A DNA stretch of 64,000 nucleotides from a virus: IMG/VR virus record IMGVR_UViG_3300045988_176357, positions 64,001-128,000 of that record; one strand, given 5' to 3'. Below are positions 898-64,000 of this stretch, piece after piece. Each line of letters starts with the position of its first letter. Positions within the stretch are counted from its first letter, which is position 1. The notes below the pieces were generated by a model. The model saw only the letters and a program-made list of their open reading frames with translations. It made no database searches and was not told where the DNA came from. A program made the position numbers and the translations under genes.

Positions 898-3800
898 AGC
901 AAGTACGGAACACAGGCAGTCCCTCTCCAGTAGCGTTAGGCTCCTTTTGTTCGCGCACTTGACTAGCAGTCCGGATAGGACATGCCTACGAGACTCGGAA
1001 GACTCCTCGGCACACAGTGGGCATAGAAGCCAGGTATGGTGAAAGCTGTTCGCAAGGACAGAATCGACATGCTGTACGACGACGGCACGAAGGGATCAGT
1101 GTATCTGTACGACAACTTCCCTGCCAATGCGAAGGGCTGGCTGACCAACTACGTGAAGGTCAAGGCCGGTGACAAGGTTGCTAAGGGGCAGCTGCTGGCG
1201 TCTTCCAACTACACTGACGACAACGGCGTTGCAGCTACAGGCAGGAACCTGCGTGTAGGCTACATGAGCTATCATGGCGCGACGTATGAGGATGCCTGTG
1301 CACTGTCGTAGTCGGCTGCGAAGAAGATGGGCTACACGATCATGTACAAGACAGGCATGGACAAGGACAAGTCCATCCGTACGTCCAAGCAGCTGTACAA
1401 CACCTGGAAGCCAGGACAGTACACAAAGTAGCAGCTGTAGAAGCTGGACGATTTCGGCGTGGTCAAGCCGGGCACTGTTTTGCAACCTGGCGACCCGATG
1501 ATCCTTGGTATCCGAACTACTGAGCCCTCGCCCGGCACACTTGGCAAGAGGATCCTCACCGATGTTACCTAGACATGGTAGCACAGCACACCGGGCACAG
1601 TCACGGACGTGACGAATACCAAGAGCGGCATCAAGGTGTACGCTACCGTCAGCAAGCCACTGTAGGTAGGTGACAAGATGTGCTACGATGAGTAGACGTA
1701 GGTACTGACAGCTGATGGCTGGAAGCGTTTTGCTCAACTCACATTGCATGACAAAGTGTACACGCTCGATCCTGATTCCGATACCATATAGCTGCAGCAC
1801 CCTGTGATGGTACACAGATACAGACATAAGGATCCGATGTACAAGCTCTGCACAAGAGACATCGACCTTATGGTCACTCCCAACCACAGGAACCTTGTCA
1901 GGATACATGCCGCACAGGGACCTGCCAAGTATCGGCTGGTGCAGGCAAGTGAGCATTATGGCGAGCTGCTGTAGATGCGTACAGGTGCGGAAGGTGCTCG
2001 CCGGGATGTGCCCGTGAACTACGCTGCGGACGACGTGTAGCAGTGGGTCGCCTACGACGGCTACGTGTACTGTGCCACTGTGTAGAAGTACCATACGCTG
2101 TACGTGCGCAGGAACGGCAAGGCAGTATGGTCAGGCAACTCTGGCTTCTAGGGCTCCAAAGGCACGGTCGCACAGGTCATCCCTGACGACAAGATGCCGA
2201 GGGACTCGCAGGGCAGGCCGCTGTAGCTGCTGTTCGACCCGCTTGGAATCATCAGTCGCACAAATCCCTCGCAGCTCATGCAGGCAGGACTCGGCAAAGT
2301 GGCAGCCAAGACAGGCAAGCCCATAGTGATGCCTCAGTTCATGCCCAAGGGACAATCAAGGCTCAAGTATGTCAAGGACCTCATGAAGAAGAACAATGTT
2401 CCATGGTCCTAGGACGTGTACGATCCGTAGTCAGGGCGCACAATCAAGAACGTCTTCACAGGCGTCGCCTACTACATGCCTCTCAAGCACCTTGCATAGT
2501 CCAAGATGAGTGCACGAGGCACTGAAGGGTACGATGCATCAGGTGTGCCGAAGTCCGGTGGTGAGCATGGAAGCAAGAAAATAGGACAGCTGTAGAGCAG
2601 CGCTCTGGTCGGACACGACGCCTTCGACTTCCTCACTCAGGACGCCAAGCTCATACGCGGCCAGTCCAACGCCGACTTCTGGCGCTCCATTCGCACAGGC
2701 CAGATACCTGTCGTCCCGGGCTAGCCTCTCGTGCACAAGAAGTTCTTCGCGCACCTGCAGGCTTCTGGACTCAACGTCCGCAGATCCAAGTAGGGCGTCT
2801 CTCTGTTCGCACTCTCCACAAAGGACGTGGACGACATGGCAGGCAACAGATAGCTCAAGTCAACAGACACATACGAGCAGAAGAACTTCAGACCCATCGA
2901 CGGCGGTCTCTTCGGACAGGACATCTTCGGACCCGACGGCATGAACTGGGGCTACATTCAGCTCGACAGCCCTCTCCCGAACCCCGTCATGTAGTAGCCG
3001 CTTGCGCGTCTCCTGCGCATGTCCGACAAGGACTTCCAGGCAGTCGCTCAGGGCAGAGCCACGGTCAATGGCATCTCCAACGCAACATAGATGAAACAGG
3101 CGCTGGCAAAGATCGACCTGTAGAAGGAAGCCCAGCAGTCGCTCGTATAGCTCAAGGATGCACGGCCCTCAAAGAAGGACGCTGCGCTGAAGCGCTATGT
3201 AGCCATTGCCAAGATGCGCGACAACGGTGTTCCTCCTCAGGACTACATGCTGGACAGAATACCGGTGCTGCCTCCCAAGTTCCGCCCGATCACACAGCAC
3301 GGCGGTCTCACAATGGTAGCAGACAGCAACTACCTGTATGCGCAGCTGCTGAACGCAAGGGACGACCTGCGCTAGGCACAGAAAGAAGGACTGCCCGCTG
3401 AGTACATCACCGACGCGAACGCGAAGCTTTACACGAAGTGGAAGGAACTGGTGGGGCTGTACGACCCATAGGACGTGAAGCTGAAGAACAAGTCGGTGAA
3501 GGGCCTGCTGAAGTGGGCCCTCGGCACGAGTCCCAAGCGCTCGGCGTTCGCCACGAAGGTGCTGGGGTCGACGGTGGACACTGTGGGACGCGGAGTCATT
3601 GTTCCCAGTACTAAATTACGATTGAATGAGATCGGGATGCCGGTGGACATGGCGTGGGATGTATATGCGCCTTTTGTGGTGCGCAAGCTGGTGCAGCGGA
3701 ACTACACACCTGTGGACGCCATGAAGATGGTCAAGTAGCGTGTGCCTGCGGCGTTCGATGCACTGCAGCAGGCGGTGAGCGAGCGGCCTGTGGTCATGAA

Positions 3801-8272: not shown

Positions 8273-8617
8273 ATGCCCATTCATCAGAACGAAGACGGTA
8301 CCTGGCAGTGGGGCAAGTCAGGTAAGAAATACAAGAACAAGCAGGACGCAATAAAACAGATGCAGGCTATCTTCGCTTCCGGTTACAGAGAACCTGGGCA
8401 ACGCAAGAAAGCCGGGCTTACCTACATGTCTGCGTACCTGATTAAAAGAGCTGGTGGCGGTTCCTTCCAGGACTACATGAACTCCAATATTCCTGTGGAA
8501 AATGTGGAGCAGAGTCCGCAAAACAATGTGAAACAGGAACCTGAGAAACCTGCACAACAGCCGCCGACCCAGCAGCTTAACAGGCTTACGGGAATCTCTT
8601 TCTAGGAAATCAAATAA
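8273..8617 (+). CDS. Small hypothetical protein (MPIHQNEDGTWQWGKSGKKYKNKQDAIKQMQAIFASGY...)
   Basis: ATG immediately after ligase TAA; one TAG read-through at 8606 extends it to TAA 8615-8617. Confidence 0.5.
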
Positions 8618-8630
8618 GGACCTTATTAAT

Positions 8631-8969
8631 ATGACTTACATCGAAGCCTACAATATGTATAAGCAGGCTGCTCAGGTGAATGCTCCTGCTGCACATCCTT
8701 CTGTAACACCATCCGTTGCCACGAAACCTGCATTTGGTCAGTCGTATGTTAACGGCGGTTCAAAAATGCCTGACCTGCCGGGCACACGTACAGCAGTCAA
8801 AGGTGATACACCGTATCTGTACTGGACGCAGCTCGGCGGGAATAAACATATGCCGTGGCAAAAATGGCTGGGTCAGTTTCTGAAGGATAATCAGCTGAAA
8901 GCGGACGCCAAAGGCAGAGTTCTCCTGAAGCCAGGTCAGAACTATATGCTTGGCCCTGGAATTGAATAA
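8631..8969 (+). CDS. Hypothetical protein (112 aa)
   Basis: Standard ORF without TAG, TAA stop. Confidence 0.45.
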   Translation: MTYIEAYNMYKQAAQVNAPAAHPSVTPSVATKPAFGQSYVNGGSKMPDLPGTRTAVKGDTPYLYWTQLGGNKHMPWQKWLGQFLKDNQLKADAKGRVLLKPGQNYMLGPGIE

Positions 8970-20030: not shown

Positions 20031-20212
20031 CACTCTCTATGTGAGATAGATAATCCCAACAAAAAGGTAATATACCCATGAGTATGCTTAACAAGAAAGC
20101 CGCTTTTCTCCACGATCTGCTTGTTCAGTCCGGAGCGCTGCACAAAGTTGCAGGCGGCGAATAGATTACAGAGAAGAAGCTCGATGCTCCGCAGCCCACT
20201 ATCGGCGACAAG

Positions 20213-21333
20213 ATGCAGAATGAAACCGAAGAGGCTACGAATGGCAACTATGCTTCCGATCCCAGTGTGAACGCCGAGGTCAAAGGCACTGTCGAAATGG
20301 TAGAGAACAAGATCGAAGGCGACGATGACAAGAAGGCTGAAAAAGACCTTGCAGAGACCGGTACTGATGTGAAAGACGTATGTCCTGCAGGTATGCCTAC
20401 AGGAACTCCTGCTCAGGTTGCAAAGTCTGCAGCTCTCAAGCAGAAGCTCACGGCCTGCATCAATGCCCAGATCGAAAAAGAAGCCGCTATGAAGAAAGCA
20501 GCTGAAGAAGCTGAGCTTGCCAAACAGGCTGCAGCTAAGCAGGCTGAGAGCAATGAAGTGATGACAGCTACCGAAGTTCTTAACAAGGTTGCATCTTTCA
20601 CTGAGGACAAAACAGCTGAAGAACTTGCAGCGCTTACTGACGACATCGAAGTCAGCTTCAAGAAACTCGCTGCTACCAATCCGCTGTTCAATGTTGCCTG
20701 CGAACAGGCTCTGATTCGCAAGATGGCAGCTGAGGTTGAAGCTCTTTCAGCATCTGAAGGCATTCCTCCGGAAGAAGCGGCTGCGGCGCTCGATGCTGCT
20801 GTCGCTGAAGATCCTGAAGCGATGAGTGAACTTACTAACGAGGCTGAAGGTGAGGCTCTGTCTGATCTTGCAGCTGCGGAACAGGACTCTGCTGCTCTTA
20901 TGGACGGACTCGACCAGACCGCTGCACAGCTCTCTGAAGCTCTTGGTGAACCCGTTACAAGTGACGATATTCTCGCGGCTGTCGATGAAGTCACTGCTCA
21001 GGCCGAACAGCTTGGAGTTCCTCCGGAAGCTCTCGTTCAGGCTGCTGCAGCTGAGATGGCTCAGGGAGCTTAGATCTCTCCTGAAGATGCAGCTGCTGCT
21101 GAACAGCTTGTCAGTGATGCTGCTGCTCAGGGTGTTTCTCCCGAAGAGCTTGTCGAAGGCATTGCTCAGGCTGAAGCTGGTGCTGCCCCTGTCGAAGGTG
21201 CGCCTGCGGAGGCTCCTGCAGCTGAACCTGCACCCACTGAAGAGTAGCTCGCAAAAGAAGCTTGCCTCAGAAAGCTCGCATCTACGAAGCGCGGCGCCAA
21301 TCTCATGAAGATTCTTACTGCCAGCGGCAAGTA
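20213..21333 (+). CDS. Ala/Glu-rich acidic coiled-coil protein, putative scaffolding or head decoration protein
   Basis: 286-aa track ORF extended through 2 TAGs to TAA 21331-21333. Composition AELAKQAAAKQAES...AAEVEALSASEGIPPEEAAAALDAAVAEDPEA. Sits upstream of the capsid candidate. Confidence 0.45.
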
Positions 21334-21345
21334 AGGAGCGCACAA

Positions 21346-21750
21346 TGTCACAGGACTTCCAGAAGATCGCTGAAGAAGCGATTAAACAGTGCGCAGAATA
21401 TGAAGCTCGCATTAACCAGCTCCAGGAACAGATTGCTCTCACCAAGAAGGCAAATCTGGCCGATCCTGAGCTGGTTAAGAAGTCCGTGGAAGCTCTCACT
21501 AAAACAGGAGGTATCACGGCATAGCAGGCAGACGAGACAGCTCAGTTGCTTGCCCACGACCCAAATGCCTCCTTAAGAGCTATTCAGGCTCTGTGCGACC
21601 GCTACACTGACGCAGCTCCCATTGTGAAAAAAGAATCCGATATATAGGGCGGCAGGCTTGTTGATACATTCAATAAGCAGGCATCGGCGGCTCCTGTTGA
21701 AGACGCATACGCTGCAGTTGCCCGTGTCCTCGGACTAAAGATGAATAAAT
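21346..21750 (+). CDS. Small hypothetical protein (about 135 aa)
   Basis: Frame 1 ATG after scaffold stop, 2 TAGs; end approximate. Confidence 0.35.
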
Positions 21751-21763
21751 AAAGGAAACTATT

Positions 21764-22348
21764 ATGGCTATTACAAGGTCTGTTAAACAGCAGTACGAGT
21801 ACTACGTTGCTGTTAAGAGCGGCGTTCTTGATGAGACCAACTGTCTCATGCACACGGCTGTGCTGAATGAGAATGCCGATAAGGTTGTTCGCGGCTCTGT
21901 TATCTCTCTGAATGCTGCGGGCGAATTCGTGCTTGGGCTTACTGAAGGTTCCGGCAATCTGTATCCGATGCCCTGCTTCGCGAAGAAGAATGCGTTTGAT
22001 CCGGATGTCATGACCGGCGCTGTCGGCAGTGCTACCGGCGAAGTTATCGCCAGTTCTACTGTCGGTAAGAAGATGTCCGCCTATGTTGCTACGGGTGCAT
22101 TTGAAATCGAATCCTCTGAGTTCGATAAGGATGCTACGTATGCGATCAATGCTGCACTTGTCTGTGCTGATGGCGACAAGCTTGGAAAGGTCACTCCCGG
22201 TGGTGCGAACGCTGTGTACGGAGCGAAGACTGTCGTCGGTATCGTCAGTGCGCTTCCGTTCCGCTCCAAAGCCAGCCTGAACGTGAACGGCACTGCTGTT
22301 AACCGCATCTGCTTCTGGTCGGTCTTCTTCCCGCCGAAGCGTGGTTAA
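21764..22348 (+). CDS. Hypothetical structural protein (194 aa, TAG-free), possible head decoration
   Basis: Clean ORF with TAA stop inside the capsid module. Confidence 0.4.
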   Translation: MAITRSVKQQYEYYVAVKSGVLDETNCLMHTAVLNENADKVVRGSVISLNAAGEFVLGLTEGSGNLYPMPCFAKKNAFDPDVMTGAVGSATGEVIASSTVGKKMSAYVATGAFEIESSEFDKDATYAINAALVCADGDKLGKVTPGGANAVYGAKTVVGIVSALPFRSKASLNVNGTAVNRICFWSVFFPPKRG

Positions 22349-22404
22349 TCCGCTGTAAGATAAACCAGGGGAGCGTGTCTCCCCGATAACTATAGGAACG
22401 CAAT

Positions 22405-23418
22405 ATGTACACTTCCGATCAGATTGCTGCCATCAATCAGGAGTTTAAAGACAAGCTCCTCAGCGATGACTCCGCTATGGTGAAACAGGCGGGACTCGCA
22501 GGCACCACATATTTCCGTACGCGCATTCGCTAGAATGCCGTATACCGCAAGCTTCTTCCTCCGGTCTCCGTTACGGCTGACAACTTCGATGTGAATGAAG
22601 CCTCCGACCTTCCCAGCATGATTGTCGAGCTCGACATCAACTCCGAAGGTGCAATGCAGGTTCCGTTTGAAACGGCTACCACCGGCGCAACCTTCAACGG
22701 ACGCAAGGCGAGATGTGAATTCGGGCGCATCATGACGCCGAAGTACGAGATCGACAAAATCCGTCTTACCGGATACAAGATGCCGATCCTTGACATCCTG
22801 TACGACCTCATGCTCAAAGACATCATGGATGTCGAAGACGAAGCGTGGGCGGCTGTCAACCAGGAAATCGTCGGCAATGCTGATAACCAGACCGATCAGA
22901 TCGCTGAATTCGGTCTCCGCCGCGCTATCCGCCAGACCTGGGATCGTGAAGGCGTTGCCGGTCTCGGTGCTGCGGCTGCCGGATTGCTCCGCACGAAGGG
23001 CAAATTGAAACCGTCCAAAGGACTCATGAACGAACTTCTGTACATCAGAATGGCTGAGTGGGATCGAAATACCGTTGGCGGCGATATGGCTCAGGACATG
23101 CTGTTCGATGGTGTCACGACCGGCAAGCTGAACAAGCTCGATGTCCTCGTCACCTCCAAGGATACTGTCTGCTCCGAATACGATCTGTGGGTGTTCACTG
23201 ATCCGCAGTTCTATGGTGCGAACTACACGTACCAGGATGTCAGCATGGTTACGGACGAAAAGGATGGAATCTTCCTGAACTTCTTCGCCTATGAGACCAT
23301 CGGCGGTATCGTTGTGAACAGAGCCGGTGTCTGCAAGGTCACGTACGATGCGAAGAACATCAACGAGTGCACCTTCTGGACTGATCCGGTTGATGCTTCC
23401 GACGCCATCGGTGGCTGA
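22405..23418 (+). CDS. Putative major capsid protein (337 aa)
   Basis: Size and position (after the scaffold-like gene, followed by a strong terminator); only 1 in-frame TAG. No motif-level proof. Confidence 0.35.
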
Positions 23419-23442
23419 TTGAAATCAGGTTGCTGATTATAA

Positions 23443-23472
23443 AAGCCCTCCGTAACAGGAGGGCTTTTTTTA
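23443..23472 (+). terminator. Rho-independent terminator
   Basis: AAAAGCCCTCC-GTAACA-GGAGGGCTTTTTTT downstream of the capsid candidate. Confidence 0.7.
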
Positions 23473-23520
23473 TGTCCTTAATGTGGTAAACTGTAAGAAA
23501 CCAACAAGAAAGGAAGTATT

Positions 23521-24309
23521 ATGTCAGTAACTATTCAGACCGTCATCACCAACAAGAGTCGCGGAGTTCGTTCCCTTATTGTTTCCAGATCAAAGACGTA
23601 CAGTCTCAGAGCAGGAGAGACAGTAGTTCTCGATTACGATATCTGGTCGTACCTCACACCTACAGTAAAACGGAAACTTGAACTGGATGTGCAGATGGGA
23701 AGACTCGAGATCACAACAAGGCTGTTCACAGACAATGCCAACATCTCTGTCGACCCTGATGGAACATATAAGATTGCCAACGGCGGACTTGAGGTCGCCA
23801 AGCCCAAAGAGCAGGTGAAAGAAAATAAGCTCCCGGCAGCCAAGGCTGACAAGGCCACCACCAACGGAAAACTGTTTGACAACAGTGGTACGGTTATGGC
23901 TGACAAGAGCTCGTCTGTCATGCAGAAAGCCATCGGAGCCAAGCGTGTTGAGGCTGGTAATACAGATCAGACAGAACAGCCTGCACAGGACAAAACAGGA
24001 TTCACTAAAACCGACATGAGCTCCTCGGGTCTTATGCATACTATGAACAATCTCGAACCTGCACATTCATCCAGCGTGTTCAAAGCCACCTCGACAGATA
24101 CAACCAAAGCAGAGGAAGAAGCCAAAACAGAAACAGAGAAAGAACTGTCACGTCCTGAATACATCGACGAACTGTATGCAGCTAAAGATTACACAGCCAT
24201 CGCAGGAGCGCTGACAGAGTGGTATCCTGGAACAACGTTCACAAAGGCTTCTATCAAGAAATGCAACAGCTATGCTGAACTCAAAGAAAAGTACCCTGTG
24301 CTTGCGTAA
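23521..24309 (+). CDS. Hypothetical protein (262 aa, TAG-free)
   Basis: Clean ORF, TAA stop. Confidence 0.45.
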   Translation: MSVTIQTVITNKSRGVRSLIVSRSKTYSLRAGETVVLDYDIWSYLTPTVKRKLELDVQMGRLEITTRLFTDNANISVDPDGTYKIANGGLEVAKPKEQVKENKLPAAKADKATTNGKLFDNSGTVMADKSSSVMQKAIGAKRVEAGNTDQTEQPAQDKTGFTKTDMSSSGLMHTMNNLEPAHSSSVFKATSTDTTKAEEEAKTETEKELSRPEYIDELYAAKDYTAIAGALTEWYPGTTFTKASIKKCNSYAELKEKYPVLA

Positions 24310-25014: not shown

Positions 25015-25281
25015 ATGAAAGACAAAGAGTAGAAAGTACCCGGTACCGTTGTGTAGATTAAGTCGGTTGAAACCTGCGATGAAGCTTGTGAAACTTGCAC
25101 CCAGTAGTGCTCTGAGGAGAAGCTTCAGGCTTTGTAGCAGGCTTTACAGTACTCACAGTTTTAGGTCATACAGAAATCAATTCTGCTTGTTGCAGTAACA
25201 GGTAAATTACAGTGTATGATCGGTACAATCCAAATAATTCTCCTCATCGGGCTTATGATCCATATGTTTTTCTTCATGTGA
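25015..25281 (+). CDS. Small protein with Cys-rich N-terminus and C-terminal transmembrane helix, holin-like candidate
   Basis: MKDKEQKVPGTVVQIKSVETCDEACETCTQQC...LLVAVTGKLQCMIGTIQIILLIGLMIHMFFFM, TGA stop. Confidence 0.35.
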
Positions 25282-25284
25282 TAA

Positions 25285-25680
25285 ATGCGGTACACAAGAA
25301 CCTAGCTGGCTAACCACTATAACGTCACAAAAGGAAAGCTTCGGCGTATATTGAAAGCGCTGCAGCTTCAGCCTGTGTAGGTTGAACGTACTGCTACAGG
25401 GCGTCCTGTGTTCTATTATGCCGACAGCACTGTGTTGTAGATCGACAAATACCTGGATGCTCTTATGCAGAAGAAACAGCAGTAGCTTGTAAAGTGCTGT
25501 ATATGTAAGCAGAGTGTCAGTAAGAGCAGTATGATCGGCGGCAGATGCCAGATGTGTTATGTGAAGAAGTGCTGTGCACCTATTATGTACGGAAAGTAGT
25601 TCTGGAACAGGAAGGTAAACGCACAGACTGTCAGCACAGCTATTCGTTATCTGCAGTCAATGTTACCTGGCTCCACGTGA
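25285..25680 (+). CDS. Putative HTH DNA-binding protein with C-terminal Cys-rich zinc ribbon
   Basis: LANHYNVTKGKLRRILKALQLQPVQVERTATGRPVFYYADSTV then CCICKQ...CQMCYVKKCC; frame 1 checked, TGA stop. Confidence 0.4.
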
Positions 25681-26072: not shown

Positions 26073-26492
26073 TCAGGATGCATCACCAAGCAGCTCTTTT
26101 ACACAGCATCTTTTGCTGTGTCTGATTTTGTTCATGTGGTAGTGAGCTGCACCGCATCCTCTGCACACATACAGCTGCTTCTTGTGGAAGTCACTAGATA
26201 CATACAGACTGTCTATGTTGAACAGCAGCTGACGCACTTTGCCTGACACTGATCGCTTGTTCCAGTCAGCAAGGTCGCATGAAGTGTGCCACAAAGCGCA
26301 ATCAGCCGTGTTGCATTTCACTTCAGCGCCTTTTCCGTTCTCATAGACGTGCACTTCAGGAATACTGCCGCAGAAAGGACAAGGCAGAACATGCTTAGGC
26401 AGCTTGGCTGTGCCTATTTCGTACTTGTCTGTACCTGGCACTTTGATGCCGTTCCTGCGGAAGATCTTATCTATGACTGTGTGTTTGTGCAT
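26073..26492 (-). CDS. Lar-family-like zinc-ribbon protein (restriction-alleviation-like), standard stops
   Basis: 139-aa − strand ORF with LPCPFCGS...EVKCNTADCALWH and a second CRGCGAAHYH motif. Confidence 0.45.
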   Translation of the reverse strand: MHKHTVIDKIFRRNGIKVPGTDKYEIGTAKLPKHVLPCPFCGSIPEVHVYENGKGAEVKCNTADCALWHTSCDLADWNKRSVSGKVRQLLFNIDSLYVSSDFHKKQLYVCRGCGAAHYHMNKIRHSKRCCVKELLGDAS

Positions 26493-26596
26493 GCTGTTCC
26501 TGTTGGTGTCTCTCCTGTGAAGTATAAAAGGGGCCAGAGTGCTGCAGGAGTTCAGTACTCTTGTCGACTGGCCGGTCTAGGCCCCTTGGAATTAAC

Positions 26597-26713
26597 TGGC
26601 GCTCCCACTGAGATTCGAACTCAAGATCTGGCGGATTTCATTGATAATCGAGGACTTACAACAATCCTGATATCTCTGGACTATATCATCTTCTCCGTTT
26701 CCAGAGAAGGAGC
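26597..26713 (-). ncRNA. Aberrant 117-nt tRNA-like element: canonical T-arm (TTGAG-TTCGAAT-CTCAG), acceptor 3' strand, discriminator and encoded CCA, but non-canonical 5' half
   Basis: Reverse complement ends ...CAGATCTTGAGTTCGAATCTCAGTGGGAGCGCCA; candidate 5' acceptor strand GCTCCTT lies 117 nt upstream; no standard D/anticodon arms could be fitted and no CTA anticodon is present. Confidence 0.35.
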
Positions 26714-26931
26714 GCTTCGGACTTTCGTCCTACTCCCTTGCGGGATAGTCTCTGAACCCTTTCCGGGCTCCATAGCTTTCGCCTTAGGAGATCCCTTGAT
26801 CGGCTGCTGATTGCCTTCGGCGTTACCCGTTAAGGTGTCCCAGCAATTCACTTTCTTGTTCGACACACCTCGCGGTGTGAAGCTCCAAACAGAGTCCGCT
26901 GTTCTGCCATTAAACTATGGGAGCATAATAT

Positions 26932-27007
26932 TGGTTGCGGGGACAGGATTCGAACCTGCATATCCAAGCTTATGAGGCTTGTCGGCAACCGTTGCCACCA
27001 CCCCGCC
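26932..27007 (-). tRNA. tRNA-Met (anticodon CAU), 76 nt with encoded CCA
   Basis: Reverse complement GGCGGGGTGGTGGCAACGGTTGCCGACAAGCCTCATAAGCTTGGATATGCAGGTTCGAATCCTGTCCCCGCAACCA: anticodon stem CAAGC/GCTTG, loop CTCATAA, T-loop TTCGAAT, acceptor 6 bp plus a G1:A72 mismatch. Confidence 0.7.
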
Positions 27008-27405
27008 ATATGTACACCTTAGTGCGCCTTGGTACTCCTTGTTGTTACATGACTAATCTACTGCAGACGTCGAAAAACAAAACAACTAACGCACTCAGCT
27101 CTAGTAAGCAGAAGCATACAAAAGCAATAATAAAAGGACACAACAATGTAGTTAATCACCAGCTTGGTCGCACTGATACTTGCTATATTCGGCGGGTTTG
27201 GGTATATGGTCAGGCAGACCGAGAAAGGATTCAAAAGGCTCTAGACCAGAATCGAAACCTTGTAGAAGAAATTAGATACGACAGTCGATTAGGACACATG
27301 TTAGTAGAGGCGCTGTCATTATGTAACAGCAGTCTCATTCCAAGAGCAGATAAGTTAGCTTACGTTGTCCATACAGCGCCTGACGCAGATATTAGAGAGC
27401 AAAAA

Positions 27406-27831
27406 ATGAAGTACGCGTTGCTTGCTTGTTCTATATTGTTGTTTGGGTTTCTGTTATCTTGTGCGCCCTTTGGCTCTACTGTATAGCCGCAGCCGAAGTA
27501 GCTGACAGTTGTCTAGCAAATAATACAGTAGAACAAAGACAGCATACGCAGCATATCGAATTAGATAAATCAGGACTATTAGATAGGGTATAGAACACAT
27601 AAACTTATCACATAGGTGCAACCTGAATCCGATCTGCACTATAAATAGCTTGGAAAGATTGTTTAGTCGATTGTGAAGTAGGTTTAGCAACAGGCCAACA
27701 AGACAAAGACTCAGCGCAAAGACAGAGCTAGAACTGCAGCTGTAGCAGTGGTAGCTATAGTTTGCCTGTGCGCTATAGGCAGATCTTGCAAAAGGGTAAG
27801 GGCTATATGCAGATCAAATAGAGATTCATAA
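27406..27831 (+). CDS. Lipoprotein-signal plus C-terminal transmembrane protein, unimolecular-spanin-like; extremely TAG(Q)-rich
   Basis: MKYALLACSILLFGFLLSC (lipobox LLSC) ... C-terminal TAAVAVVAIVCLCAIG; 13 TAGs in about 141 codons; TAA stop. Confidence 0.35.
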
Positions 27832-56712: not shown

Positions 56713-57359
56713 ACCTATTCTAGCGCAAAGACTGTATGGTTCCTGTATATGCTCTTGCTGCTGTATCCAAGTTTCAGTAGTAGGCTGTAAACTGGGACCC
56801 TCTGGTACTGCGCGACGCATTTTAGGCTCAGTTCAACTGCAAACTGTCACAGCGCGGTTTTGACAAGCTGATGGCAGGTACGTCCATGATAGGTACAAAC
56901 CTGTTCACAGCATCCATATAGAGCTTTTTAGCCTGTACTGCAGCTTGTGCCAACAGAAGCATACAGTCATCACAGCTGAACTATGTATCTCTGAAAGAAT
57001 GCTGTTGGTCTGTATTCGTGTACAAAGATATGATCGGATACAACCAGCAGGAACAGCAAGATCAGTTCGATCCGGATATAGTGATGTATATACAGGGCCT
57101 TATGGATATATAGGGTATATCCAAACTACCTTCATACATGTCCTTTGTCTAGCTGCCGACGTAGAGGATGGCGACTATATAGCAGGCTCTGGTAGGTGAC
57201 GTCACATCGTTCTAGGCCTACAACACAAGGCAGCTGAACTAGATGCAGGATATAAATGCCTACGTGATGCAGATGCAGGCAGATCTTGTATAGCAGCTGA
57301 AGCTGTTGGATCCTATTATACACTGAATTATTCTCAAAGGGAAAAGTGTGTATTTTCCT

Positions 57360-58450
57360 TTGAAAATAGCTAAAAAATGACCACTTTTTTGGCATAATAA
57401 TATGGAGAAGCTTTTAGAGCTTTTCTATGGATGGACTTATCCATCCGGTTTCACGGTGCTGTATTGAGGTCGACTTATGTTGACTGTCAATACAGCACCA
57501 TTCGAATTTGTGACTATTGTTTTCTGTTACCCTGCTTAAATTTTTACTTAGTAGTCGTATATGCATCAGCTACTGTTGCTCGCTGGTAAATTACAACCTA
57601 AGTAAGTTTAGCTACGATGTGAACAAGAAGCTGCTACGGCTTCGATTTGTAGAAGGACCGCCGCGTGTCCGTTACTGATTTCCACTGGAAATTTCATAAG
57701 CGATCTGCCTCTCGTGGTTACGAAGGCCAGATCGCACCTGAAATTACCAAAGAAAATACAAGACATCGTTATCTGAGCATGCAGTTGTTACAACTGCTGT
57801 AAACACATACTAATGGTGGTATGTGATCATATTTCCTGGTACTAGGTATTATGTACCAGGAAATCGATAGATATACAGGTGAACAGTTCGACAAGCAGTC
57901 GGCTGGATATGTCACACTATTTTATTTATGCGGATTCTGTTGCTCTTGTGTCTTGGTTCATTTTAATATTCAATAGACTTCGTATCAGTTACTGATACAC
58001 TTAGAGACCATGTGAGACACATATGTGTGTCTATTACCCTCAGCATACCTCCAGAGTGATACTCTGGAGGTTAACTTTAGGGTAATAAAAGTATTGAATA
58101 TGTTGCCAACAGATGACTAGTACGTGAAATAGAAGTCGTTGCGACTTCGCATCGGATTTGATAAATACCTTATCAAACAAATGAACGGCTGAGAGGCGAC
58201 CCGCCAGGCCCAATTGAGGCACTTGGCTACAGCCAAGTGACCACAAGTGGGCATCGGCGTACGCCTCCCGCCTATCGTTGAGACGTTAAAGCCTGAATCT
58301 ACAATCGTTACGATTGCTTGTATGCTGGCTAGGACAGTATATATGTTATAATTGGAAGGATCATGCTATTATTGATCCTTCCAATTTTAGAGGCGATGAC
58401 TAGTTTATTTATTTGGTAAAACAGATGCACACTAACACGTTACGTGTTAT
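57360..58450. other. Noncoding region of about 1.1 kb, dense in stable hairpins and inverted repeats
   Basis: No long frame free of TAA/TGA. Hairpins include GGATGGACTTATCCATCC, GGTGCTGTATTGA...TCAATACAGCACC (13 bp), TTTCCTGGTAC...GTACCAGGAAA (11 bp), CCTCCAGAG-TGATA-CTCTGGAGG nested in TTACCCT/AGGGTAA, AATTGGAAGGATCA-TGCTATTAT-TGATCCTTCCAATT (14 bp). Confidence 0.5.
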
Positions 58451-59118
58451 TTTACAGCATACAATGGACAACGTTGTATCGCGGTATGTTCTTACTTATG
58501 AAGCCTGCGGCGAGCGCAAAACTCTGCTGTCTATCGACGCAGACTTCAGCGCACCGACGCAGCTTCAGAACTAAGAACAGATCAGATCTGTAAATAAAGC
58601 TGAACTCGAGTCCGTTACGGATTCACAAATGTGTATTACTCAATGCGTGATACACAACAATCCTGGTGCTGCATGGAGCACCTCCGAACAGCACCAGGAT
58701 TCAGAGCTTATACCCCAACACAGCTAAAGCTTTCTCAAGCTAAGCTATAAACTTGGCATCAGGAACAACAGAATTCGCAAACCCTCCAAGCCCGTCCCAC
58801 TGTCCTGCAAGACGCTGTTTAACAGCCTATCTTATCCGCACACCAAGATCCTACAGAACCAGTTTGATCTATTGGCTCTGCACATGGAAGCCTTTCTGCT
58901 CCCATCTGACCCAAATCGGGTACCACCTTGCAAACCGCTTGCATGCGGTAGGCAGAGGATATATAGTATCCCTTCTTCCCTATTTGCCGCGCAACACAAC
59001 GTTGCCGTTTATTGACTAGAGTCTTCTGACCTAGTCAAAAGTGAACTTAGCGTGACTCATAGACTAGTACTGCGTTGCTTCTTTTTTTAGCCTATAGTCA
59101 TTGTTACTGTCAAGTTTA

Positions 59119-60936
59119 ATAACTTTCATATACATCCTCCTATGGGTCTATTACAACAGGGTGACTGGAGACGGCCTGCACGAACTGACTGAACTAGGAT
59201 CTTGGACTGAAGTTCTGATACTAAGCGGCCAGCACAGAAGTGTCGAACTTCTAGCCCAGCACAGGAAATATTCCGAACTTATGCCATAAGGCTGAGCAGG
59301 CAAAGTTGACGGCATGTGCAAAGTCATCAGGCACACCTGGTTTCTTGCCTATGAAGACAACTGTCCTGTTGCCTATATACGCTCTTGGATCCTACTTAAG
59401 CGCAAGAAAGTCATAGGCAAGCTAAGTCTTATCCTATACATTGAACTTCATTATACGTACAGACGTATCTTTCAGCGCCTGCACAATAAGAGCAAGACTT
59501 CTGGACTTGTCTATTGTATAGTTATAATAGTCAGCCTGCTGCTGAGCTTTGTCGTAGCTTATGATGTCGCCTTTCTTAGGTCCGGTATATGTGAACGGAA
59601 CAGGATACGTGCTTGTGAGCAGCAATCCTCGCTGCTTCATGATCTACATGCGCACAAAACCCGCACCACCGTTATCGTGTGCAAATATATCAGGATGCAG
59701 GATATCTATCCATTGCATCAGCTACTAGGCCTGCTATGTCGGCGTCGTTCCTTTAGGGTATCTCTTGCCGAACAATATATCTATGCGGTCTGTATCCGTT
59801 CGCAACCCTGCTACACACGCAGTTGTGAACGACTATGATACAGCGCCCCCTCCGTCCCAGTCTACACCTATGACTATGCATCTGTACATGTGCCTGATAC
59901 CGAGTATATCCTGTACTGAAGCGATGTTGTAGTCATGTTGGGCTGCAACAAGATCACGCAATGTCAGAGGATTGACTGACTAGTCATACGGCCAGCCGAA
60001 AACTTCATTGTACACACGCAGCTTGGAATAACTGTCGACTTTAGCCAGAAGGTCGTACCATTTTCTAGGTTCATTGGTAGCCTAGTCGATCGTAAGATGC
60101 AGCGGATGTATCGGCTGCCCTATATGGTAGCCTGGGAAAGTGAACTGTCTCTAAGGTACGGCATGTACGAAGCCTCCGTTATGTGGAAACACAGTGCGCC
60201 CACACCTGGAACACACAAGGCCGTTCTTTCCGAGCATTCCAAGAAGATCGTGCTATGGATTGGGTATATTGAAATGGTTGCAGTGTGTGCATCTTATTAT
60301 CCACTATGCCTGCGATGACTTATCCCACAGGATACCGCAAGTAGTATCTGTCGTAGTCGGAGTACCCGCATACATGGAATACCCGTGCCGCAGGTTGGCC
60401 GACATAACCTCACGTATGACAGGCACGAAACTGAAATCCACGTCGGCAAGCTCGTCTATGACTATCTGTGAGCATCCGGACAGGCCTCGCAGAGCATCTG
60501 CGTTGGCGTAAGCGGTGCCCAGATACATGAACGAGCCGACATTGAACTGCTTCAGCAGAGTTTTGCTGAGCTATACTTTTTTGATAAGAGATCCGCATAT
60601 CGGACTGGACTCAAGCAGAGGTTTCAGAATGGTAGTGTGATATCGTGTCCTCTGTTCATCTCTTGGTTCGATATGAAGTATATCATAAAACGGTATCAGA
60701 CTGGAACGCAGTACAGACGACTAGGCTATCTGATAGGTCTTACCGACCTGTCGTCCAGTCATCCATACCTGCTATCTAGGATATATAGTGTTGAACATGG
60801 GTGCGAACTGATAGTGCAGATCCAATGTCAGAGGTTTCCCCTTAAGAGAGAAGATACTCAACAGTGGAATGAACGTCCTCAGTTTGTCCTAGGCGATAGC
60901 ATTCAAACACGATTTAACAGCATCAATTAAAGTCAT
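59119..60936 (-). CDS. terL: Large terminase subunit (605 aa), TAG-recoded on the minus strand
   Basis: Reverse-strand frame free of TAA/TGA with 16 CTA (antisense TAG). Walker A MTGRQVGKTY (T4 gp17-type RQxGKT); Walker B QIVIDELADV; nuclease motif CIVIGVDWDGGGA; stop TAA (rc of 59116-59118). Confidence 0.75.
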
Positions 60937-60972
60937 AGTAATTCAAGCATAAAACAGAAAGGAAAAACGAAA

Positions 60973-61335
60973 ATGAAAAGCAAACGGACACCGGAACCAG
61001 ACGCAGAACTCGTAACAGCAATCAAGTGTGCGCCAGACAATGGGGCTTGCGTTACCAAAGTCATCAGCGTACACAAGGCTGCAGCCAATCTGAGCTCGAG
61101 AGCTGCCGCACGTAAAGCTGTACTGGATATAGTTAAAAGCCTGAAACTGAACCATGCCAAAGTCCAGCTGGATTCGGCTGCTTATTTCGATGAAGATATT
61201 TTCAGAGTCCGAATCTGGAAAGAGAAAGCAACAGCAGATGCATGGGATAAGACTGTAATTTACTGGCTCGAGACGATGCCTCTTATAAAGCCGGTCAGGA
61301 ACAAGCTTGCCAAACTGGGATTCAACCTGGACTGA
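60973..61335 (+). CDS. Hypothetical early protein (120 aa)
   Basis: TAG-free ORF, TGA stop; divergent from terminase. Confidence 0.5.
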   Translation: MKSKRTPEPDAELVTAIKCAPDNGACVTKVISVHKAAANLSSRAAARKAVLDIVKSLKLNHAKVQLDSAAYFDEDIFRVRIWKEKATADAWDKTVIYWLETMPLIKPVRNKLAKLGFNLD

Positions 61336-61366
61336 GCTTTACTGTAACAAATGAAAGGAATAAAAG

Positions 61367-61627
61367 ATGAAAAGAAACAATTATGTATTCGCAGTACTGA
61401 GCTCAGGTATATTCCACACGTATATCGAAGCTGCATTTGATAGTGAGCTGTTGGCAATTGCGTACATGCAGAAACGTCTTGATGCTGTGCGGGCAAAGCA
61501 CAAACGAGGATATGGTGGCAGATGGCGTACTGAACCTGACGGGTCGAGAACTGTCATGCTCAGGATGTGTAATCAGCCACACATCCAGCTGAATCTGCAG
61601 AAACTCACCATACAAACCCACCTGTAA
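61367..61627 (+). CDS. Small protein, paralog of 61664..61960
   Basis: Shares AYMQKRLDAVRAKHKRGYGGRWRT with AYMQHRIDMYKRKHRRGWGGKWNT in the next gene. Confidence 0.5.
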   Translation: MKRNNYVFAVLSSGIFHTYIEAAFDSELLAIAYMQKRLDAVRAKHKRGYGGRWRTEPDGSRTVMLRMCNQPHIQLNLQKLTIQTHL

Positions 61628-61663
61628 CCAACACATATACGAAATAACTGAAAGGAAAGACCC

Positions 61664-61960
61664 ATGGCAAAAAATAAGAAATGCGCATACATTGTACTGA
61701 GAGATGACAGATTTTATGACTGCCTGTCAGGAGTCGAAGCTTTGTTCGACACAGCAGAAGCAGCTAAAGCCTACATGCAGCATCGTATCGACATGTACAA
61801 AAGGAAACACAGGCGAGGATGGGGCGGCAAATGGAACACTAAGGCGCCGATGAATGAAGAATGCGAAGCCGAAATACGTGCAGGTGACGGCTATTGGTAC
61901 ACACTGTATGTAGAGAAATTTATCATACACACAAAAGAAGATATAAAGGAGCTTGAATGA
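61664..61960 (+). CDS. Small protein, paralog of 61367..61627
   Basis: See the paralog entry; TGA stop. Confidence 0.5.
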   Translation: MAKNKKCAYIVLRDDRFYDCLSGVEALFDTAEAAKAYMQHRIDMYKRKHRRGWGGKWNTKAPMNEECEAEIRAGDGYWYTLYVEKFIIHTKEDIKELE

Positions 61961-62364
61961 TCGTTATCAGTCGTCTTTATGTCTCCGGACTTCCTTTAGA
62001 TAAACTCGAGCAACTGGCAGATGAAATCAGCCACAAAGACTTCACAGACGGCTGTGTCTTCGCATGCTCTGTCCACAAGGATGCTGCTAGGATGTACATA
62101 GACACCTTTGAAGGCGTCGCTACCGACCAGATGGACGATGATCTCAACGAGATTGGCAGACTCGCGCTGAATTATGGTTGCCGCATTGCAGGCAAAATCT
62201 TCCAATTTGGTGAATTTGCAGTATGGTCCGGAAACTTCAATGATGTGAATGAGATCGAATGGGTTGACATGACTCTGTTCATGGAACTGCCCACACACGA
62301 GCTCAGAAAACTTGCAACATATGTAGGTGCCGACAATGTCGTACAAGCTCAACACAAATGTTAA
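61957..62364 (+). CDS. Hypothetical early protein (135 aa)
   Basis: ATGA overlap with upstream stop; TAA stop. Confidence 0.45.
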   Translation: MIVISRLYVSGLPLDKLEQLADEISHKDFTDGCVFACSVHKDAARMYIDTFEGVATDQMDDDLNEIGRLALNYGCRIAGKIFQFGEFAVWSGNFNDVNEIEWVDMTLFMELPTHELRKLATYVGADNVVQAQHKC

Positions 62365-63136
62365 GCCGCTTACTGCTGCACAGGAAAAAGAGGCATTCGC
62401 AGACTTCCATTCCCAAGATACAAAGAAAAGCGAGGCTGCTGCCGACCTGCTGCTTTCCGCTAACTCAAAATTGATCTTTAAATTGGCGCAGGAATTCAAG
62501 CACCATCCCATTCCTTTCGACGATCTCATAGCCGAAGGTTGTGTAGGTCTTATGGTAGCGGCTGGGAAGTTCGACATCAACAGAGGAACACGCTTCATTA
62601 CATATGCAGCATGGTGGATAAAACAGCGGATGCGCAAAGCTGTGGAAACACAGAGCCGCACAGTGCGAGTACCTGCAAAGACACATGTGACCAAGTCCAG
62701 ACTCCTCAGGATGCAAGACCAGCTGAGAGACGAACTAGGTTACCAGCCGGACATCTATCAGCTGTCCGAGTACACGGGCATGCCTGAATCCAAGATCAAG
62801 ACGCTGCTGAACAGCCTTGGGCACGGTGTGTCTGTAGATGCGGAATCAGAAGACACTGAAATGTCCAACCTGGAGAAGGCACGTGTAGCCATTGCCGATG
62901 ATCTTGGTGACCTGCTGGACGACTCCGAGCTGCTGGACGAGATGCGCAAAGCTTTCAAGCGCCTTCCTAAACGTGACCAATTCGTGCTTGGTATCAGGTA
63001 TGGACTTGATGGCGGCGGCGTATCCACACTGGAGGAAGTCGCGCAGGAAGTCGGCAGGTGCAGAGAACGATGCAGACAACTTCAGGAAGAAGCCTTAAGG
63101 AAGCTTCGCAGAGAAATCAGAAAACGAACAAGTTGA
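62336..63136 (+). CDS. Sigma-70 family sigma factor (TAG-free early copy); start ATG 62336 or GTG 62327
   Basis: Region 2 DLIAEGCVGLMVAAGKFDINRGTRFITYAAWWIKQRMRKAV; region 3 RTVRVPAKTHV; region 4 LPKRDQFVLGIRYGLDGGGVSTLEEVAQEVGRCRERCRQLQEEALRKLR. Confidence 0.85.
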   Translation: MSYKLNTNVKPLTAAQEKEAFADFHSQDTKKSEAAADLLLSANSKLIFKLAQEFKHHPIPFDDLIAEGCVGLMVAAGKFDINRGTRFITYAAWWIKQRMRKAVETQSRTVRVPAKTHVTKSRLLRMQDQLRDELGYQPDIYQLSEYTGMPESKIKTLLNSLGHGVSVDAESEDTEMSNLEKARVAIADDLGDLLDDSELLDEMRKAFKRLPKRDQFVLGIRYGLDGGGVSTLEEVAQEVGRCRERCRQLQEEALRKLRREIRKRTS

Positions 63137-63899: not shown

Positions 63900-64000
63900 A
63901 TGAAACGTTGGATTCCAGCACGAAAAGCAGTGCTTCTCCTGCTGTTGGTGCTGGTCGTTGCGGCATTCATGCCGACTACAGTGATAGCTACACTGGTGGC
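63900..64000 (+). CDS. Signal-peptide/TM protein, 3'-partial (MKRWIPARKAVLLLLLVLVVAAFMPTTVIATLV...)
   Basis: ATG with AGGAGA upstream; runs off the window end. Confidence 0.35.
   Translation, partial: MKRWIPARKAVLLLLLVLVVAAFMPTTVIATLV

Follow-up and report, generated by a model that had tools for sequence, protein, structure and literature searches.

The DNA described here is a stretch of 64,000 nucleotides (nt) from a virus (IMG/VR virus record IMGVR_UViG_3300045988_176357, positions 64,001 to 128,000 of that record), which we call the window. When TAG is read as a sense codon, stop-to-stop open reading frames (ORFs) of at least 100 amino acids cover 98% of the window, as against 61% otherwise. 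Plus-strand genes occupy positions 1-57326; p205 is the last of the plus-strand late genes and ends at 57326. Between p205 and the next gene lies a noncoding stretch of 1.37 kb (57327-58700), the gap that is our subject. On its far side two genes are read from the minus strand: TerL, the large terminase subunit, and a small ORF of 142 amino acids that follows it. An earlier, sequence-only reading of this DNA had set the noncoding region at 57360-58450 and placed it upstream of the terminase gene on the minus strand. Both points need correction. The stretch is longer, and because TerL reads from 60936 to 59116, the gap lies downstream (3') of the small-ORF/TerL operon.

The gap is filled with hairpins. 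A repeat search finds 22 inverted-repeat pairs within 57200-58800, several of them nested: 57966-75/58092-101 encloses 58032-40/58079-87, which in turn encloses 58047-57/58061-71, and 58318-27/58455-64 surrounds 58347-63/58373-89. Perfect hairpins with stems of at least 7 base pairs (bp) number 12 in the gap (9.3 per kb) and 34 in the rest of the window (0.54 per kb; P=1.6e-11). With stems of at least 8 bp and loops of 3-12 nt, the counts are 5 in the gap and 14 in the other 62.6 kb, a 16-fold enrichment (P=2e-5). The sequence-only reading had described a noncoding region packed with hairpins; that description holds, and there are more hairpins than it listed. It had also proposed RNA folding of both strands. 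The segment 57404-58395 (992 nt) folds on the plus strand at -369 kcal/mol, compared with -261+/-10.5 for shuffled sequences (z -10.3); the reverse strand gives z -14.8. When both strands of the 64 kb are scanned, 58126-58275 is the most stable 150-nt fold.

Might the gap encode something that ordinary gene calling misses? No ORF spans it with TAG, TGA or TAA recoded, and many 1-nt indels separate the gap sequences of close relatives; together these observations rule out hidden coding under an alternative code. The stem-loops, for their part, are conserved in close relatives, and thus neither of the two findings that the sequence-only reading had named as refuting it was made. In the only ATG-led ORF in the gap, 36 codons at 58464-58574, five of six changes read from the alignment are nonsynonymous. 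A tRNA array is excluded as well: neither ARAGORN nor Rfam finds one in 57200-58800, even at E<=10. No Rfam family in the gap reaches its gathering score, and at E<=10 there are just sub-threshold hairpins resembling miRNA precursors. The sequence-only reading had further suggested a cluster of terminators and promoters. One conserved promoter-like block is present at 57370-57404, but canonical terminators are not enriched: the scanned region holds 3 terminator-like sites, compared with 1.7+/-1.6 in shuffles, and a single one falls inside the gap.

A promoter-like block and the hairpins behind it

Syntenic loci (L001, L005-L015) were found by way of TerL homologues that are 62-99% identical. 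Their gaps measure between about 0.7 and 4.1 kb, and in sequence the interiors show no similarity that could be detected; conservation is confined to the small ORF and a block of about 40 nt at the gap's far edge. In the window this block lies on the plus strand at 57369-57404 and has the form GCTAAAAAA-N7-CTTTTTTGGCATAATAATATG, an A-tract/T-tract inverted repeat followed by an extended -10 element (TGG CATAAT). The A-tract is at 57372-77, the T-tract at 57385-90 and the extended -10, TGG+CATAAT, at 57390-98 (TGGCATAAT). From these elements we infer that the block is a promoter firing rightwards into the gap, with its predicted +1 at G57404/57405.

The exact block pattern occurs at all 13 loci linked to TerL and at 32 loci from metagenomes, a single time in each of these 45; relatives carry one copy per 10-15-kb locus. 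Scored with a position weight matrix, it reaches 70 bits in the window, and the next best site in 64 kb scores -2. Its single copy in the window rules out a generic repeated phage promoter. Against four close relatives the block shows no differences at 41 positions, where the gap differs by 10-17% and the third-codon sites of p298, p205 and TerL by 8-19%. It can still be recognised in phages whose TerL is 32-77% identical, the arms of the inverted repeat being conserved and the spacer variable. In the unrelated lineages L039 and L042 it stands at promoter distance from AAGGAGG and an ATG; in the L016 group it is followed by a hairpin and then by a Shine-Dalgarno (SD) sequence and ATG. In 13-14 of 16 lineages the predicted transcript begins, within a few nucleotides, with a hairpin, and these hairpins are unrelated in sequence.

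From left to right, the features of the locus are as follows (coordinates, strand, description).

57329-57368, strand unset: stem-loop I5, with 16-nt arms that are 88% complementary, directly after the p205 stop codon and directly upstream of the promoter-like block
57370-57404, plus strand, facing into the gap: promoter-like block, CTAAAAAA-N7-CTTTTTTGG-CATAAT-AATATG
57402-57428, plus: 5'-end hairpin of the predicted transcript, 12 pairs, about five of them G.U
57429-57446, plus: hairpin 2, loop CTTA, inverted to TAAG in relatives
57451-57500, plus: hairpin 3, 13 + 7 bp
57544-57605, plus: closed domain, an 8-bp outer stem (TTACTTAG/CTAAGTAA) around an inner hairpin
57636-57768, plus: long extended hairpin, arms 57678-57715/57720-57757, a hypervariable patch
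57781-97, 57804-25 and 57831-64, plus: three hairpins, the first with a G-UUA-C triloop, the last with a 12-bp perfect stem
57877-57963, plus: imperfect, G.U-rich helix that forms on the plus strand only
57966-58101, plus: multibranched domain, a 10-bp outer stem around hairpins 57982-98, 58014-31 and 58032-87 (the last holding 58047-71)
58132-48 and 58157-77, plus: two small hairpins, the first with a G-UUG-C apex
58172-58275, minus: element containing the GC-rich hairpin of about 90 nt at 58187-58275, the most stable in the window, with the U-rich tail TTCATTTGTTTGAT on the minus strand
58303-58464, plus: element made up of hairpin 58303-17 (G-UUA-C) and the closed domain 58318-58464
58347-89 and 58426-56, plus, within 58318-58464: a 14-17-bp perfect hairpin (tail AAUUUUAG, terminator-like on the plus strand) and a second hairpin
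58659-58701, 58630-56, 58608-24 and 58487-58579, minus: hairpins 3' of the minus-strand small ORF, the first beginning at its stop codon
58701-59129, minus: the 142-amino-acid ORF 3' of TerL, conserved and TAG-recoded, with homologues in L002 and L040
59116-60936, minus (reading 60936 to 59116): TerL, GpA type; matches phrog_675 (E=6e-37), with PF05876 on homologues

Are these stems maintained? In part, they are. In the alignment of 57765-58110, 98.6% of cells are paired, whereas controls with slid partners give 33-52%; thirteen cells carry double changes and the covariation score is 0.085, values that none of 500 shuffles reached for either measure. At the top of the 57831-64 stem an A.U to C.G double change divides the distinct sequences 6:6, and a GC/AT double change at about 58161/58169 divides them 8:6. 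The multibranched domain at 57966-58101 (helices 8-12) has double changes from AU to GC and from AU to CG. Helices 5-6, at 57877-57963, comprise 26 pairs of which 97-100% of cells are paired; eight pairs vary on one side and yet stay paired, and two are broken in some sequences. Helix 3 varies at five of its eight pairs, and helices 3 and 6 at 11 pairs, always by way of a plus-strand G.U. At 57636-57768, near-identical phages carry three unrelated versions of the patch. Each of the five full-length versions nevertheless folds as a long hairpin (z -3.2 to -6.2), with modest covariation in those that can be aligned. Nor is the abundance of hairpins confined to the window's lineage: in the unrelated gap sequences of relatives their density is 3.6 per kb versus 1.0 (P=3e-17). 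Close relatives also preserve the sequence of I5, next to the block.

The array is built of modules, none of them indispensable on its own. Natural relatives have lost modules of 212, 297 and 466 nt by deletion through microhomology between hairpin arms. L028 lacks the closed domain at 57544-57605 as the result of such a deletion (57569-57780), and L029 and L013 lack the whole of 58303-58464. We considered and set aside several origins for this modularity. An integron-like cassette array is not supported: no integrase was recognised among the neighbouring genes (Pfam and PHROG for p205 and the 142-amino-acid ORF, PHROG for p298), the hairpins have no core sequence in common, and the deletions run through microhomology, which also excludes a site-specific cassette system. 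IS200/605 elements are not the source of the hairpins; in L044 a TnpB element takes a hairpin's place and does not supply one. This TnpB (IS200/605 OrfB, 361 amino acids; PF01385, PF12323, PF07282) replaces 58350-58417 and lies on the strand of the TerL direction. A second TnpB, at L010:1454-2428, adjoins TerL.

Two further peculiarities of the array concern its loops. The loop of hairpin 57429-57446 (57437-57442) reads CTTA in the window and in L032 and TAAG in most other relatives; this is a loop inversion, typical of template switching in palindromes. Six hairpins in 57781-58624, with 6-7-bp stems, have a G-UU(A/G)-C triloop in one orientation, and in the gap the pentamer GTTAC occurs 8 times and GTAAC not at all. 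As a universal motif the G-UUA-C triloop was rejected: it is lineage-specific, and only L005 has similar G-UUN-C loops.

On which strand does the RNA fold? The 5'-end hairpin at 57402-57428 forms only on the plus strand because about five of its pairs are G.U, and for 57400-57539 the consensus fold has -56 kcal/mol on the plus strand and -29 on the minus. Compared along the gap, consensus folds are more stable on the plus strand across 57400-57960, where the advantage reaches 27 kcal/mol, and across 58240-58520; at 58170-58309 (by 12 kcal/mol for the GC-rich hairpin element) and at 58450-58589 (by 16 kcal/mol) the minus strand has the better fold. In the minus-strand consensus, hairpin 58187-58275 has 48 pairs and six double changes, and about six sites vary through minus-strand G.U, against two of the other kind. 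GC skew is positive to about 58500, as in the plus-strand genes, and negative beyond. The most fitting reading of the gap is that of a plus-strand unit, some 1 kb long, meeting the 3' end of the minus-strand TerL operon. Its right-hand 200-500 nt (58172-58700) look like the 3' untranslated region and terminator of the small-ORF/TerL operon, and the hairpin at 58187-58275 with its tail TTCATTTGTTTGAT is a plausible candidate for that terminator.

Cargo behind the same block in relatives

What lies behind the block elsewhere? In five relatives it is tRNA genes, downstream on the promoter strand: L005 (Leu), L006 (Ile), L012 (Arg), L011 (5-7 tRNAs) and L040 (6-7). In each of these loci 460-630 nt of hairpins precede the tRNAs. 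The predicted transcript of L005, 751 nt long, consists of some fifteen hairpins, a tRNA-Leu ending in CCA and two more hairpins (z=-15.7). L011 carries an HNH_3 gene inside its tRNA array. Small genes led by an SD sequence stand behind the block in L007, L009, L012 and L043; no Pfam family was found among the cargo proteins. These cargo genes contain no TAG in 473 codons in L007 and none in 400 in L009, as against 3.5-6 per 100 codons in the flanking genes. All of the tRNAs, tmRNA-like RNAs and cargo ORFs lie downstream on the strand of the block.

The window belongs to a lineage that lacks such cargo. None of its 17 close relatives has a tRNA or an ORF behind the predicted promoter; this tRNA-less, ORF-less state typifies the whole lineage, and the promoter-like block is invariant all the same. 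Decayed cargo genes were considered and rejected, as tblastn found no remnants.

Two loci carry RNAs related to transfer-messenger RNA (tmRNA). At L009:6827-6907 (minus strand), an RNA of 81 nt scores 52 bits on the Rfam tmRNA model and corresponds to the tRNA-like domain only (acceptor stem, GGUUUCGACG, T-arm). In it 14 nt replace the mRNA-like part of about 308 nt, and it escapes ARAGORN. Possible identities are a phage mini-tmRNA and an SmpB decoy. L039, of an unrelated lineage, has a complete tmRNA at 1411-1792 (plus strand), with the tag peptide GEALPIAA*, 1.35 kb downstream of the same motif.

Among the protein cargo, a family of about 100 amino acids (...VDDGRM.AWL...), without a Pfam family, recurs at the ends of the cargo operons in L007, L012 and L043, and many of its cargo neighbours are small membrane proteins. 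At the other end of the terminase gene, L007, L009, L011 and L012 have a conserved, uncalled ORF of 32 amino acids (MNKSALKYITRAGIAPVERLIRQDAFATGRTQ in L007) with a strong SD sequence, 70-90 nt from the TerL start and on the opposite strand. In these four loci it is followed by more small genes, membrane proteins included.

A proposed promoter-driven hairpin unit and its rivals

On balance, we favour the view that the gap is the junction of two convergent transcription units and that the larger part of it is a phage stable-RNA (tRNA)/accessory operon in noncoding form, with hairpins alone behind a promoter. Structured noncoding RNA was among the options of the sequence-only reading, and that option gains support from the compensatory changes that keep the hairpins and from the tRNA genes behind the same predicted promoter in relatives. 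The closest analogue, judged by layout, is the T4 tRNA gene region, where one promoter yields a transcript of about 1.75 kb that gives rise to eight tRNAs and the species I and II RNAs; the region carries segB, and its content varies among relatives (PMC2330249). Here too, one conserved promoter-like block lies just upstream and the cluster sits on one strand as a predicted unit. Here too, modules are gained and lost, the relatives mixing tRNAs, the HNH gene of L011, the small ORFs of L007, L009 and L043 and the TnpB of L044. There are differences. The window's lineage is without any tRNA. The part that is not tRNA comes to about 1 kb and some twenty hairpins, whereas T4 has two discrete RNAs of about 120-140 nt, and the 460-630-nt hairpin leader before the first tRNA in relatives is unlike T4. 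The predicted promoter is of another type, conserved across very divergent phages, and the host is not E. coli. The locus is a tRNA-less variant of the T4-type tRNA region kind and not a member; we file it as a variant because the defining feature, that it contains tRNAs, fails in the window.

Other known elements resemble parts of the locus. Promoter-early stem-loop (PeSL) cassettes occur in hyperplastic regions of T4-like phages (PMC4122927). The likeness is partial: stem-loop 57329-68 lies directly upstream of an early-type extended -10 promoter-like element (57370-404), and the two stand at the start of a hyperplastic locus that is rich in indels and made up of small ORFans. PeSLs, however, are short, many per genome, each with an SD sequence and ATG, and act as recombination points, whereas the window has one copy in 64 kb and no SD or ATG, though both are present in L039 and the L016 group. 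Its -35 region is not sigma-70-like, and its deletions run through hairpin-arm microhomology, not through promoter copies. The 5'-end hairpin recalls the 5'-terminal stabiliser stem-loops of Gram-positive and phage mRNAs, such as the aprE leader and the SP82 polypurine stabiliser. It lies within a few nucleotides of the predicted +1, has a purine-rich, GGAG-like 5' arm, and is conserved in position and free in sequence. Unlike those stabilisers it precedes a noncoding array and not a single mRNA, and a stabilising role here would be by analogy. Theta ribozymes, minimal relatives of the hepatitis delta virus (HDV) ribozyme, stand beside tRNAs in TAG-recoded gut phages (PMC10879173). The setting is alike: gut phages with TAG recoded to Gln, and loci made of phage tRNA arrays and long noncoding stretches. 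The elements here are, in contrast, plain hairpins. No HDV-like Rfam model matches the window's gap even at E<=10, and our own descriptor of a nested double pseudoknot, whose sensitivity is unproven, has no matches in the window and none beside the relatives' tRNAs.

How would a hairpin-only operon work? Host RNA polymerase would transcribe the unit early. We place it in the standard-code class, and take it to be early, because its cargo in relatives is free of recoded TAG, unlike the flanking late operons. The 5' hairpin would shield the end of the transcript. A long untranslated RNA could owe its stability, and a resistance to Rho and RNases, to dense folding and a composition richer in G than in C, which could also set processing sites. 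Hairpins at the junction would halt the two converging polymerases before either transcribes the other unit's late genes in antisense. In the T4 tRNA region, the species I/II RNAs, which are not tRNAs, may be the counterparts of these hairpin RNAs. As to what the hairpin RNA itself does, we infer a role with caution. It is conceivable, though we consider it unlikely, that the array is a functional early RNA, long, 5'-protected, proof against Rho and RNases, and kept behind its invariant promoter after the loss of tRNAs and ORFs: a decoy or sponge for host RNA-targeting nucleases or defences, at a locus from which relatives obtain replacement tRNAs, or the antisense arm of an excludon that silences the recoded terminase until the code switch. 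Within the window, no targets for antisense action in trans were found beyond chance.

A number of observations weigh against the operon interpretation. As the window has no tRNA, its assignment to such an operon depends on the syntenic relatives. Promoter, start site and transcript ends are alike predicted from sequence. At -35 the block has CTAAAAAA, which does not resemble a sigma-70 element, and its conservation is tighter than a promoter alone would need. The block also adjoins TerL in two arrangements, convergent or, in L017, L041 and L053, divergent at 45-70 nt. Few of the gap's hairpins carry U-tracts; those with terminator-like tails are 58187-58275 (U-rich, minus strand) and 58347-89 (AAUUUUAG, plus strand, as read from the letters). 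A strand-neutral count of wobbles is balanced at 15:15 and so makes no strand call. Inside the gap, sequence change proceeds at a roughly neutral pace, and because modules of 212, 297 and 466 nt are lost in relatives, no single hairpin is essential. The covariance search across relatives that the sequence-only reading had proposed gave a divided answer: the signal at 57765-58110 stands, but over all pairs of the minimum-free-energy (MFE) structure 28% of paired and 29% of unpaired columns vary, and blanket purifying selection on all predicted pairs is not seen. As to the host, distant TerL relatives (L048-L056, 29-50% identity) are found in metagenome-assembled genomes binned as Planctomycetota, Lentisphaerota, Bacteroidales, Acholeplasmataceae and Saccharibacteria. 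Binning has probably swept phage contigs into these genomes, and such inconsistent phyla give no host.

Some of these points suit a different account, in which the gap is a largely neutral, hyperplastic spacer: its hairpins would come from template switching and palindrome mutation, together with leftover terminators of lost cassettes in a dispensable insertion hot spot, and only the promoter would matter, for cargo lost here. We think this improbable. The neutral rate of divergence in the interior, the equal variability of paired and unpaired columns, the tolerance of large microhomology-mediated deletions and of a TnpB insertion, the CTTA/TAAG inversion so typical of palindrome mutagenesis, and the mostly perfect palindromic stems, whose wobbles show no strand bias, would all be expected of it. 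It does not account for the significant excess of compensatory and double changes, for a patch whose three unrelated versions all give a long hairpin, for six triloops in one orientation, or for hairpin enrichment that recurs in the unrelated sequence of distant relatives, alongside functional tRNAs. Nor does it account for an invariant promoter in a cargo-less lineage. That invariance, in a lineage with nothing coding behind the block, counts in favour of an excludon-like arrangement, to which we likewise give little credence. Here the transcript from 57404 would be a long structured leader that crosses the array, continues antisense through the small ORF and TerL, and enters the TAG-free plus-strand genes from 60973, with TerL silent meanwhile. 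The layout hints that an early transcript might in this way control a recoded late gene from the antisense strand. Plus-strand genes from 60931 on are TAG-free, and TerL and the small ORF are recoded; 36 bp separate the ATG of TerL (60936, minus strand) from that of the first early gene (60973), and relatives with extra sequence at this spot have more small SD-led genes with no evident promoter; no sigma-70-like promoter is found on the plus strand inside TerL. However, the transcript must cross 3.6 kb that include terminator-like hairpins (58347-89, with its AAUUUUAG tail). Weak terminator-like sites in 58600-61400 number 6, where 1.7+/-1.1 are expected, five of them on the plus strand and four antisense to the small ORF or TerL. 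A promoter off the sigma-70 consensus could exist near 60940, and in L017, L041 and L053 the predicted promoter faces away from TerL.

The two readings that treat the gap as a DNA site fare worse. That the block, with its A6-N8-T6 inverted repeat, or the hairpins, or both, form the pac/cos region of a GpA-type terminase is highly improbable, although the block is single-copy, extremely conserved and found close to TerL in both arrangements, TerL belongs to the lambda GpA type (PF05876), and the arms of the A/T inverted repeat are conserved around a variable spacer. Elsewhere the block keeps promoter distance from an SD sequence and ATG and from the position-conserved 5' hairpin, and it is AT-rich; known cohesive ends are unlike such a block. 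The distance from block to TerL ranges from 45 nt to 4.6 kb. Contigs do not end consistently at the block either: the window and long contigs run through it, and the ends of short contigs are scattered. A replication origin, possibly activated by transcription from the conserved promoter, is the least probable reading of all and barely deserves credence. The sequence-only reading had named an origin as a candidate, and the gap is in fact lower in G+C (35-40% in parts, versus 47% for the window), with the promoter-like block adjoining structured DNA at a unique site. Against an origin, the gap has no iterons, tandem repeats or direct-repeat family beyond chance; none of the window's 26 near-matches to the DnaA box falls in it; cumulative GC skew tracks the coding strand without an inflection; and the interior is not conserved, half of it being deletable.

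If the gap is, as we favour, a promoter-driven hairpin unit, it has several uses. The promoter-like block, the predicted start at 57404/57405 and the modular RNA turn an anonymous gap into a defined unit open to test. The 30-nt motif alone pulls loci from metagenomes and offers a handle on tRNA, accessory or anti-defence cargo; in a wide range of uncultured gut phages with TAG recoded, it would mark a variable locus of the early class. The tRNA-less, ORF-less lineage with its invariant block is a natural experiment on the non-tRNA part of phage stable-RNA operons, the function of which has been an open question since the species I/II RNAs of T4.

The recoded genome around the gap

TAG density sorts the genes of the window into two classes. 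The recoded class, comprising most plus-strand genes, TerL and the small ORF, has 3-7 TAG per 100 codons (TerL 3.5, the 142-amino-acid ORF 6.0). The TAG-free class lies at 60931-63136, 20054-24309, 25207-25656, 26283-26810 and 8532-8969. The split looks like a map of late and early genes; in recoded gut phages it is the late lysis and structural genes that are recoded (PMC10879173). No suppressor tRNA (CTA) was found in the 64-kb window despite the recoding. Its sole tRNA is a tRNA-Met (CAT) at 26932-27007 on the minus strand, overlapping the start of the plus-strand ORF 26929-27831.

As for the flanking genes, neither the 142-amino-acid ORF nor p205 matches Pfam or PHROG, and p298 has no PHROG match; the counterpart of the small ORF in relatives is a called gene of 125-142 amino acids. 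TerL is at most 25% identical to that of cultured phages, the DNA of the locus has no similarity to deposited phages, and we found no earlier description of the locus in the literature. Among close kin, many independent Logan contigs of the cluster with 99% TerL identity are 36.7-37.5 kb long. L013, one of these contigs, stops some 3.8 kb after the TerL start, beyond position 64000 of the window, and this end may be a physical genome end or a recurrent assembly break.

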